A stretch of 12,658 nt of DNA from a bacterium (lineage in GTDB: Bacteria > SAR324 > NAC60-12). The DNA lies in the NCBI GenBank assembly GCA_965233585.1, contig CBDDTI010000086.1, positions 1 to 12,658 of the forward strand. Direction: 5' to 3'. The translations under genes and the position numbers were made by a program. The notes below the pieces were generated by a model. It was not told the origin of the DNA and did not search any database. It saw only the letters and a list, made by a program, of their open reading frames with translations. The number at the start of each line of letters is the position of its first letter. The stretch's first letter is position 1. Shown here piece by piece: positions 1 to 11,635 of the stretch.

Positions 1-146
1 AACATGGCGGTCGCGAGGGCAGATCTCATCGGTTCTACTTCAACTTTTACTCTTTGCATTCAGTAACAGCAAATTTGGGAGACACGGGAAATGATCTGTT
101 ACAAACAGCAGTGATAAACATATTGAACTTGCACATTTTGATTATG

Positions 147-296: not shown

Positions 297-485
297 TTAA
301 TAAAGCATCAACTTTTCATTTCCGACGTTGACATTGAAAGCTGGCTCAAGTTCTTGAATATATAAGGTCTCTTTTATTTTACAATGATAGTCTGTTTTGC
401 CCTTCGCTAAAATATCAAAATGATCCCACTTGATGTTGTGTCCAGTGGCCTTGACGTGGTCAGCAATGGCTGAAGTATTGTCAGT
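297..485 (-). pseudogene. C-terminal fragment of PLE GIY-YIG endonuclease (left copy): TDNTSAIADHVKATGHNIKWDHFDILAKGKTDYHCKIKETLYIQELEPAFNVNVGNEKLMLY*
   Basis: Open frame ending in TAA at 299-297; SAIxxH..TGH..W..F.IL....IKExLxI....PxxN is the typical PLE GIY-YIG C-terminal pattern; no start codon. Confidence 0.85.
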
Positions 486-501
486 TGTGAACGATTAATA
501 C

Positions 502-636
502 AAGTGGGATCATTTTGATATTTTAGCGAAGGGCAAAACAGACTATCATTGTAAAATAAAAGAGACCTTATATATTCAAGAACTTGAGCCAGCTTTCAAT
601 GTCAACGTCGGAAATGAAAAGTTGATGCTTTATTAA
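502..636 (+). pseudogene. C-terminal fragment of PLE GIY-YIG endonuclease (right copy): KWDHFDILAKGKTDYHCKIKETLYIQELEPAFNVNVGNEKLMLY*
   Basis: Inverted duplicate of the left copy, truncated further 3'; TAA at 634-636. Confidence 0.85.
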
Positions 637-747: not shown

Positions 748-788
748 ACTTTTGAAAATGTATGTAGAGTACATACGAAACGTCAAGT
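748..788 (+). ncRNA. Minimal type I hammerhead ribozyme motif (PLE-associated, U3-A8 core variant)
   Basis: Stem I ACUU(748-751)/AAGU(785-788); core UUGAAAA (752-758) plus extra U759; stem II GUAUGUA(760-766)/UACAUAC(770-776); GAAA (777-780); palindromic ACGU stem III; GUC cleavage triplet ending at 784. Confidence 0.75.
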
Positions 789-1202
789 CATAATCAAAAT
801 GTGCAAGTTCAATATGTTTATCACTGCTGTTTGTGTCTTATTTTTGATCAAATTACGATGGCCCAAGAACAAAAGTATTTATGATCTGTTACGTTTTGGC
901 AATGGGAAAACAACGCCTAAGACCGCACGTGGTTGTGGGATACGGCATTAAAATTTTCTGGCCGGGCCTTTTCATTACGTCACCAGATTACCTGGATATT
1001 CCGCGAGATTGAGCAGGGTAATTGTTTTATTATTCAACAAATTGATAACAAAACTCGTAACATTTTTAAATCTTTCTGTCGACATTTTTTCACTTCACTT
1101 TTTCTTCCCACGTACGAAGTTACGTATACCGCCGGATATCTGTTACCTACGGATGACAGATATCGAGAGCATCATGACCATATTTGGATAGTGTTACAAT
1201 TT

Positions 1203-3648: not shown

Positions 3649-10444
<6,796 letters not shown>

Positions 10445-11025
10445 CTGTGAATTAATCAAGCATACCGTTTTGAGCAATATATTTATTGGATGAAATTGAA
10501 CAACCTGTAGTAGGCAAAATATATTTTACTAAAACCAATTGAAGGCTTCGGTGGAAAAAGGGCGGTAGGATTTTTACTCAAAATTGAACTTTGTCGAAAA
10601 CGCTCCAAATTTCGCATGCAGTTTTGTTTAGGTGCGTTAAACAATGTTCTGTATGTTTTTTTGCTGAAGTTTTCTTCGTTTACGAGATATTACGTATGCA
10701 AAAAAGCCTGTATTTGTGGTCTCATCAGCACGTGACCGGAAAGACGGTAATTTCACTTAAAATCCAGCAAAATATTGATCTTTTGCAGCGTGTAACCTTA
10801 AAAAGTGCTGATTTTGGGGTAAAACCGTTACAATTTTGATTTCACGTTAACGTGCGACCGCAAAGACGTTAATTTCACTCAAATTACTGCTCAAAACTAG
10901 GGTTAGCACTGAAAGTTAGGGTTACGGAACAAGGTTAGGGTTACAGTTAAGATCAGCATACGTTAGGGTTAGCGCTGTGTTAGACCACGGACGGACTTTG
11001 ATTTCACTTAGAAAACAGTGTAAAG

Positions 11026-11635
11026 TTCATTTCACGCAGCGCGTAAGCTCAAAAACCTAGATTTCAGGTCAAAATAGGTTAGAATGTAGATTTTACGTTA
11101 ACGCCTGACGGCAAGGCTGTTGATTTGACTTAAAAACGAACAAAATCTTCATTTCACGCAGCGCCTAAGCTCAAAATCCGAGATTTGAGGTCAAAATAGG
11201 TTAGAATGTTGATTTCACGTTAAGGCTTGACGGCAAGGCTGTTGATTTGACTTAAAAACGAACAAAATCTTCATTTCACGCTGCGCCTAAGCTCAAAATC
11301 CGAGATTTCAGGTCAAAATAGGTTAGAATGTTGATTTCACGTTAAGGCTTGACGGCAAGGCTGTTGATTTGACTTCAAAACAAACAAAATCTTTATTTCA
11401 CGCAGCGCGTAAGCTCAAAAACCTCGATTTCAGGTCAAAATAGGCTAGAATGTTGATTTCACGTTAAGGCCTGACGGCAAGGCCGTTGATTTGACTTAAA
11501 AATGAGAAAAATCTTCATTTCATGCAGCGCGTAAGTTAAAAACCTCGATTTCAGGTCAAAATAGGTTAGAATGTGTATTTCACTTGAACGTGTGAGAGCA
11601 AGGATGTTGACTTCAGTTAGGAAACAACAAAATGT
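11026..11635 (+). repeat. 122-bp tandem repeat, about 5 homogeneous copies, with diverged copies at about 10730-10897
   Basis: The TTCACG/TTCATG anchor recurs at 11031, 11153, 11275, 11397 and 11519 (period 122); the last unit diverges after about 11575. Confidence 0.92.

Follow-up and report, generated by a model that had tools for sequence, protein, structure and literature searches.

The question raised by positions 748-788 of the window, that is, of the whole 12,658-nt contig analysed here, is whether a stretch in which the parts of a hammerhead ribozyme follow one another in proper order around an unusual core box is a ribozyme motif at all, and, if so, whether the unusual box is a maintained variant or a product of decay. 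We consider it highly probable that the stretch is a minimal type I hammerhead of a Penelope-like element (PLE), that it belongs to the U3-A8 subtype and is of the kind proposed to cleave as a dimer, and that the U3-A8 pair is kept in the source copies of the family while the locus itself is dead.

The motif and its structural elements

The motif is 41 nt long, lies on the forward strand and reads ACUU/UUGAAAA/U/GUAUGUA/GAG/UACAUAC/GAAA/CG/UC/AAGU. Stem I is formed by the 5' strand ACUU (748-751) and the 3' strand AAGU (785-788), which make four Watson-Crick pairs. The core box UUGAAAA occupies positions 752-758, with U3 at 752 and A8 at 757, and is followed by an unpaired U (759) at the 5' end of helix II. 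The helix II hairpin (760-776) has seven base pairs, 760-766 with 770-776, and the three-nucleotide loop GAG (767-769). It is followed by G12-A13-A14 (777-779), by the palindrome ACGU corresponding to A15.1-C-G-U16.1 (780-783, with A15.1 at A780 and U16.1 at U783), and by C17 (784). The scissile bond predicted by the hammerhead rule is 784/785. An earlier note on this DNA had set out the same sequence in hammerhead order, and its reading matches letter by letter. The U3-A8 pair that it described in place of C3-G8 is present at 752/757, helix III does consist of ACGU only (780-783), without a loop, and all of its structural statements on a minimal type I topology hold.

The 5' core of the motif has the form N3-U-G-A-N-N8-A of the minimal hammerhead rule, with positions 3 and 8 capable of Watson-Crick pairing. 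The 3' core has GAA, A15.1...U16.1 and an H (not G) at position 17, and the helices follow the pattern of an open helix I of 4-5 bp, a long helix II and an unpaired base on its 5' side. Helix III is represented by the palindrome only, and its pairing is possible solely between two copies. In the active hammerhead fold the pair between positions 3 and 8 makes a tertiary contact and lies outside any helix.

The Penelope-like element and its insertion

The C-terminal remnant of an RT/GIY-YIG open reading frame is found on the forward strand at 501-636. It comprises the last 45 residues, with the stop codon at 634-636. The motif is located 112 nt downstream of this stop codon and about 50-90 nt from the 3' end of the element, which bears out its earlier placement in the 3' part of a Penelope element. 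Longer copies in the assembly carry up to 320 aa of this frame at a contig end, and the 320-aa fragment of the family includes an RT motif and the block VIY..C..C..FYIG...R..EH. Its Pfam match to RVT_1 scores 13.9 bits, below the cut-off. No GIY-YIG match above the Pfam cut-off was obtained for the short endonuclease tail, the 320-aa fragment or two other PLE tails. A search for longer relatives gave 375 proteins at E <=1e-10 among 1317 candidates. The best relative, P0002 (792 aa), is 88% identical and matches RVT_1 with 43.7 bits against a cut-off of 29.6. Another relative, P0039, has both RVT_1 and, at its C terminus, a GIY-YIG domain (residues 624-671) above the Pfam cut-off, and the 320-aa family frame matches it over the GIY-YIG block with an E-value of 2e-72. 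The GIY-YIG assignment is made through homology to P0039. Two cysteines between GIY and YIG are the hallmark of the PLE endonuclease in the account of this domain in PMC8557442, and the family frame has the arrangement of an endonuclease-positive PLE, an RT followed by a C-terminal GIY-YIG with two Cys. The best named relative of the frame comes from a hydrozoan, and the lead from a protein atlas consists of eukaryotic clusters with HTH_animal, GIY-YIG and RVT_1. A Pfam search with the five longest other frames of the window returned no family, and apart from the PLE remnant no gene could be recognised in the window. The location of the motif may be called a 'pLTR' by analogy; neither a full-length copy nor a tandem one is present in the window.

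The locus is a dead insertion of two 5'-truncated copies arranged head to head. Copy A (103-500) is inverted, lies on the reverse strand and lacks a 3' tail, and its arm is complementary to 501-834. Copy B (501-880), on the forward strand, has a 3' tail. About 20 near-identical copies occur in the assembly, and the match of other copies to the window reaches as far as positions 879-885. The arm pairs 101-230/705-834 and 214-432/501-719 are each 100% complementary and are offset by 2 nt, which equals one (TA)n unit; the (TA)n run in the 3' UTR at 702-721 has one unit more than its counterpart in the other arm. The 68-nt 'spacer' at 433-500 can be assigned to copy A because residues 94-155 of the family endonuclease tail match positions 482..297 with 97% identity in tblastn. 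The 3' extension, or tail (835-880, forward strand), is present in copy B only, and copy A ends at the equivalent of 832-834. The 3' ends of the family copies fall into two clusters, one of 10 copies at about 845-855 and one of 6 copies at about 874-885. Measured from the arm boundary, the tail of copy B is about 46 nt long; the two clusters give about 30-40 nt.

The insertion is flanked by a 12-nt target-site duplication, ATGATCTGTTAC, at 91-102 on the left and 881-892 on the right. Contig C674 contains an empty paralogous site, in which the sequence of window positions 1-102 directly adjoins that of 881-998 and ATGATCTGTTAC is found once. Since it occurs twice in the window, the insertion is defined as 103-880 and as a single event. 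The flanks 1-102 and 881-998 are themselves repeated in the assembly at 93-96% identity, in C674 (5318-5525) and C732 (7-124); the flank is thus part of another repeat family or a diverged duplicate and not unique DNA.

This anatomy combines 5' truncation, an inverted partner that is likewise truncated, a duplicated target site and a tail on one side. It agrees with the features described as typical of PLEs in PMC8557442, where an inverted copy with a truncated 5' end lies next to the first, the target-site duplication varies in length, and one end may bear a tail of 30-40 bp. This optional tail is also described in PMC11167929, where it is traced to two start sites of reverse transcription. 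Copies paired head to head are likewise found in other contigs, among them C461, C624, C648, C718, C110 and C703. The second copy of the motif which had been reported at 187-147 on the reverse strand is indeed an exact reverse complement of 748-788 (147-187, in copy A). However, it is the other arm of one inverted duplication and hence is not an independent occurrence.

It is important to consider the origin of the DNA. The assembly is listed as prokaryotic, with 12.0 Mb in 747 contigs, 92% completeness and 2% contamination. Prokaryotic-looking contigs number 38 (3.8 Mb) and include four of 0.26-1.07 Mb. In 619 contigs (6.5 Mb) less than 30% of the length is in open reading frames of at least 120 aa, and animal-type retroelements, microsatellites and satellites are found there. 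More than half of the bases of the assembly appear to be host DNA, animal and probably cnidarian, that was binned together with a bacterium whose G+C content is similar.

Several other repeats occur in the window. Units repeated in tandem every 122 nt occupy 10998-11607 (also 10705-11621); at least four of them are full and are 71-92% identical to a reference pair. A 57-nt core also recurs upstream, and the array looks satellite-like. A 59-nt unit is repeated three times in tandem at 6057-6231 (68-92% identical), and long (ATT)n/(ATC)n microsatellite tracts are found at 7976-8323. The arms of an inverted repeat at 2450-2618 are 64 nt each and 89% complementary, and the spacer between them is 41 nt long. 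Open reading frames on both strands of this repeat give the same low-complexity peptide, and the repeat may represent a small element of the foldback or MITE-like kind.

Positions 3 and 8 in the assembly and in known hammerheads

The 12.0-Mb assembly that contains the window was searched with a strict descriptor. It required a 4-bp stem I and the box N-UGA-N-N-A, allowed an unpaired base before a stem II of 4 bp or more, and then asked for GAA, for a helix III in the form of an A...U palindrome and for H. Positions 3 and 8 were left unconstrained, and the reversed genome and two block shuffles served as controls. It found 73 motifs in the assembly; the reversed genome gave none and the two shuffles gave 2 and 1. 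A relaxed descriptor (stem I of at least 3 bp) gave 105 motifs against none in the reversed genome. The four large gene-dense contigs contain none of the 73 strict motifs. A chance match in AT-rich sequence is practically negligible as an explanation: the UUGAAAA box is of low complexity, and loose patterns with it also pick up satellites that are unrelated, for example the arrays in C559 and C698, but a chance match accounts neither for the excess of strict matches over the controls nor for the fixed position of the motif behind the PLE frame. The satellite arrays in C559 (about 14430-16742) and C698 (about 10892-12694) have units with UUGAAAA...GAAA A UA; considered as hammerheads in their own right, they fail the strict descriptor and look like a chance resemblance.

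Among the 105 motifs of the relaxed descriptor, 84 have the unpaired base 5' of helix II and 73 have ACGU as helix III. The catalytic positions of the core are all kept across families whose stems are completely different. The assembly also contains hammerheads with a CUGAYGA core, in C3, C76, C105, C122, C128, C147, C612, C633, C658, C85, C381 and C622. These have a helix II of 4-5 bp and longer palindromic helix III loops, CAGCUG and CCAUGG, and resemble the canonical retrozyme-type type I hammerheads of corals.

The states at positions 3 and 8 are restricted. In the strict set (n=73), C/G occurs in 44 motifs, U/A in 22 and other combinations in 7, the last being GG twice and UG, AC, AA, GA and CA once each. 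Neither G/C nor A/U was found among these 73. The relaxed set (n=105) has 58 C/G, 36 U/A and 11 others. When the strict set is reduced to sequence classes defined by the pair, by how stem II begins and by stem I, 36 classes remain, of which 22 are C/G, 7 are U/A and 7 are other.

The group homologous to the window was collected by BLAST with positions 731-800 and then aligned. The family consensus of the box is UUGAAAA and not CUGANGA: each of the 18 copies that are at least 90% identical to the motif of the window has UUGAAAA. The covariation at positions 3 and 8 anticipated in the earlier note is also observed. The 41 rows at 80% identity or more divide into 20 U/A, 20 C/G and one G/A (in C643), with no U/G or C/A intermediates. 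The C/G sister families read CUGAAGA or CUGAGGA, and keep the stem I ACUU/AAGU, the unpaired U and the stem II base GUAUG/CAUAC. The motif is the best conserved part of the 3' UTR between the sister families, with 87.5% over 741-788 compared with about 72% over 741-882; upstream of 741 these families do not align.

These data bear on whether U3 and A8 could be a copy- or family-specific decay of a once canonical motif, now inactive. The locus is a dead 5'-truncated insertion, and older copies of the family have indeed acquired disabling changes, for example G12 to A in C354 and C339 and G at position 3 in C643. However, the 18 closest copies share the box with both changes always together, and the U/A pair is present in seven of the strict-descriptor classes and behind two endonuclease clades. 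Random decay would also give many U/G and C/A combinations, and the 73 strict motifs include one of each. Decay is therefore a very improbable explanation. Comparison of the copies indicates instead that the U3-A8 pair is maintained in the source copies of the family and is not a decay product.

It is important to compare this motif with hammerheads already described. In the passages of Perreault et al. 2011 (PMC3088659) on natural variants, several hammerheads have C3/G8 covarying to U3/A8, and hammerheads with covarying positions 3 and 8 are stated to be active in vitro, with reference to Przybilski and Hammann 2007. The exchange is the same as here; the variants came from general covariance-model searches and are not described in those passages as PLE motifs without helix III. 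The relevant sections of Cervera and De la Pena 2014 (PMC4209133) describe minimal hammerheads in the terminal repeats of PLEs, with a helix I of 4-5 bp, a helix II of 7-8 bp and an unpaired base 5' of stem II. U3-A8 covariation is reported there, together with its being missed by a CUGANGA descriptor. The same sections report large sets of minimal hammerheads in invertebrates from cnidarians to arthropods, most copies in truncated elements, and pairs on opposite strands separated by 100-700 bp; the two motifs of this window are about 560 bp apart. The U3-A8 subtype in these sections shares with 748-788 its topology, helix lengths, unpaired base, palindrome and terminal-repeat site, and there is no structural difference between them. 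The U3-A8 example given is Cercyon of Schistosoma mansoni, while the motif here belongs to another PLE family and to DNA that looks cnidarian or coral-associated.

The hammerheads of metazoan retrozymes and satellites, as treated in PMC7229834, are also of type I, have a helix III that is short and palindromic, act as dimers, and are abundant in corals together with minimal PLE-type motifs. One coral genome is credited there with more than 6,000 type I hammerheads, of which all but 1,508 are minimal and PLE-like. According to the same text, retrozyme hammerheads have a 6-bp helix I, a 4-bp helix II and loop-loop contacts, and occur in tandem repeats of 170-400 bp and in circular RNAs. Unlike these, the motif at 748-788 is without loop contacts, and the window holds no tandem array of it. 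The novelty that the earlier note had implied for the U3-A8 variant does not stand, the exchange being reported in 2011 (PMC3088659) and, for PLEs and with the CUGANGA miss, in 2014 (PMC4209133). The motif is an ordinary example of an already published class. As a discovery it has little value, with both U3-A8 hammerheads (2011) and their abundance in PLEs (2014) in print.

The Rfam hammerhead models gave no match to the motif, either at the gathering score or at E-values up to 10. The canonical CUGAAGA sister motif in L026, taken as a control, was likewise without an Rfam hammerhead match. The miss is therefore due to the architecture without helix III and not to the U3-A8 change. The best Rfam matches are plant microRNA-precursor models on the long inverted repeat, below their gathering scores. 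The microRNA precursors suggested in this way at window positions 324-609 and at L026 1543-1694 (among them MIR2646 with 128 bits and MIR166) are artefacts of the PLE hairpins and were dismissed. Such hairpins could in principle feed small-RNA pathways. The lesson for annotation is that Rfam misses both the U3-A8 motif and its canonical sister, and that inverted PLE pairs give spurious microRNA-precursor matches.

Proposed cleavage and origins of the U3-A8 pair

PLE hammerheads reportedly cleave as dimers, as a paper of 2017 is said to have found. A single copy of the present motif would be unable to close helix III. Two copies, as tandem units or as two RNAs, would pair through ACGU (780-783) to form a helix III of 4 bp. 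Stem I would then form in trans, the 5' strand of one copy pairing with the 3' strand of the other, giving two composite active sites. Each of these would cut on the 3' side of C17 (784|785), leaving a 2',3'-cyclic phosphate and a 5'-OH. In the topology with an intermolecular helix III, stem I in trans is nested and stem I in cis is crossing. The prediction is accordingly one of cleavage of a dimer at 784/785.

Folding of 744-792 as a monomer gave a minimum free energy of -7.7 kcal/mol for a structure with stem I in a shifted register and the helix II hairpin kept; the hammerhead structure has -5.8. The minimum free energy structure of the homodimer is a plain extended duplex. Folding energies thus do not pick out the hammerhead. 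In the window the motifs are on opposite strands, and a read-through RNA would therefore fold as a hairpin of about 330 bp and not as a ribozyme. The ribozyme function would belong to the source copies of the family, and the fold is not expected at 103-880.

The 334-nt arm is present in 23 listed runs from nine studies; seven runs are recorded as RNA, and one RNA study with the arm is labelled coral metagenome. All 23 runs are represented by assembled contigs, which cannot show RNA ends. Some contigs that come from RNA libraries, in two studies, run across 784/785 and extend 31 nt or more to either side of it (X11 record 12, X15 record 19 and X6 records 28-30), which means that uncut RNA or carried-over DNA exists. 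Contig depth over 501-900 rises from about 795 to 880, with loose ends at 796-800, and this rise is read only as a stretch shared by more copies of the repeat.

The bridging contigs would also be compatible with a fold kept for a role other than cleavage, for example as a structural signal bound by a protein, or with a motif that merely hitch-hikes, the cut playing no part in the life cycle. In the experiments described in PMC4209133, dimeric and trimeric constructs of PLE minimal hammerheads had low activity. For the anole PLE, the sections of PMC11167929 on its hammerhead report that catalytic mutants are without effect on insertion in vitro and that no RNA-seq reads end at the site. PLE clades without hammerheads proliferate well according to the discussion in PMC8557442, whose authors raise the possibility that the motifs are parasites of PLEs. 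However, the strict covariation at positions 3 and 8, with C/G or U/A in 66 of the 73 strict motifs, is hard to explain unless the active fold matters. Homologous families without intermediates at these positions, and a catalytic core kept across families with different stems, point in the same direction. The same sections of PMC11167929 also state that C3G or G8C alone abolishes cleavage of the anole hammerhead and that the double mutant partly restores it. We regard a role without cleavage as unlikely, and retain the reading of the motif as a minimal PLE hammerhead that is proposed to act as a dimer.

The number of times that the U3-A8 pair arose was considered with the endonuclease tails. 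An open reading frame of at least 90 aa ending no more than 350 nt upstream accompanies 42 of the 105 motifs. The GIY...CxxC...YIG signature is present in 27 of the 42 frames, the other 15 rows being dropped; 25 retained 60 aa or more once trimmed, and 24 are distinct. A maximum-likelihood tree of these 24 tails (101 columns) needs the U/A label to change twice (2-3 times over the 5-95% bootstrap range). Only a single inner branch has good support, and the well-supported branches by themselves make just one change necessary. The first U/A group, the family of the window, is nested with C/G sisters, and the second is a distant clade in which all members are U/A. This arrangement weakly suggests two independent origins of U3-A8 within the assembly. 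It is possible, though not the outcome we would favour, that the change from C3-G8 to U3-A8 was fixed at least twice in one host genome, in unrelated PLE lineages, one of them nested among C3-G8 sisters with the same stems, and with almost no intermediates.

Close PLE families of one genome thus differ at exactly positions 3 and 8, with stems I and II kept. Such matched sister families provide direct comparative support for the C3-G8 tertiary pair, and are a handy pair for a cleavage assay. If the repeated fixation is true, it would imply a strong and still continuing selection on the catalytically folded core as PLEs propagate. This would be in tension with the in vitro data suggesting that the hammerhead is dispensable for insertion, and the sister pair would then be a natural system for asking what use the ribozyme is to the element.
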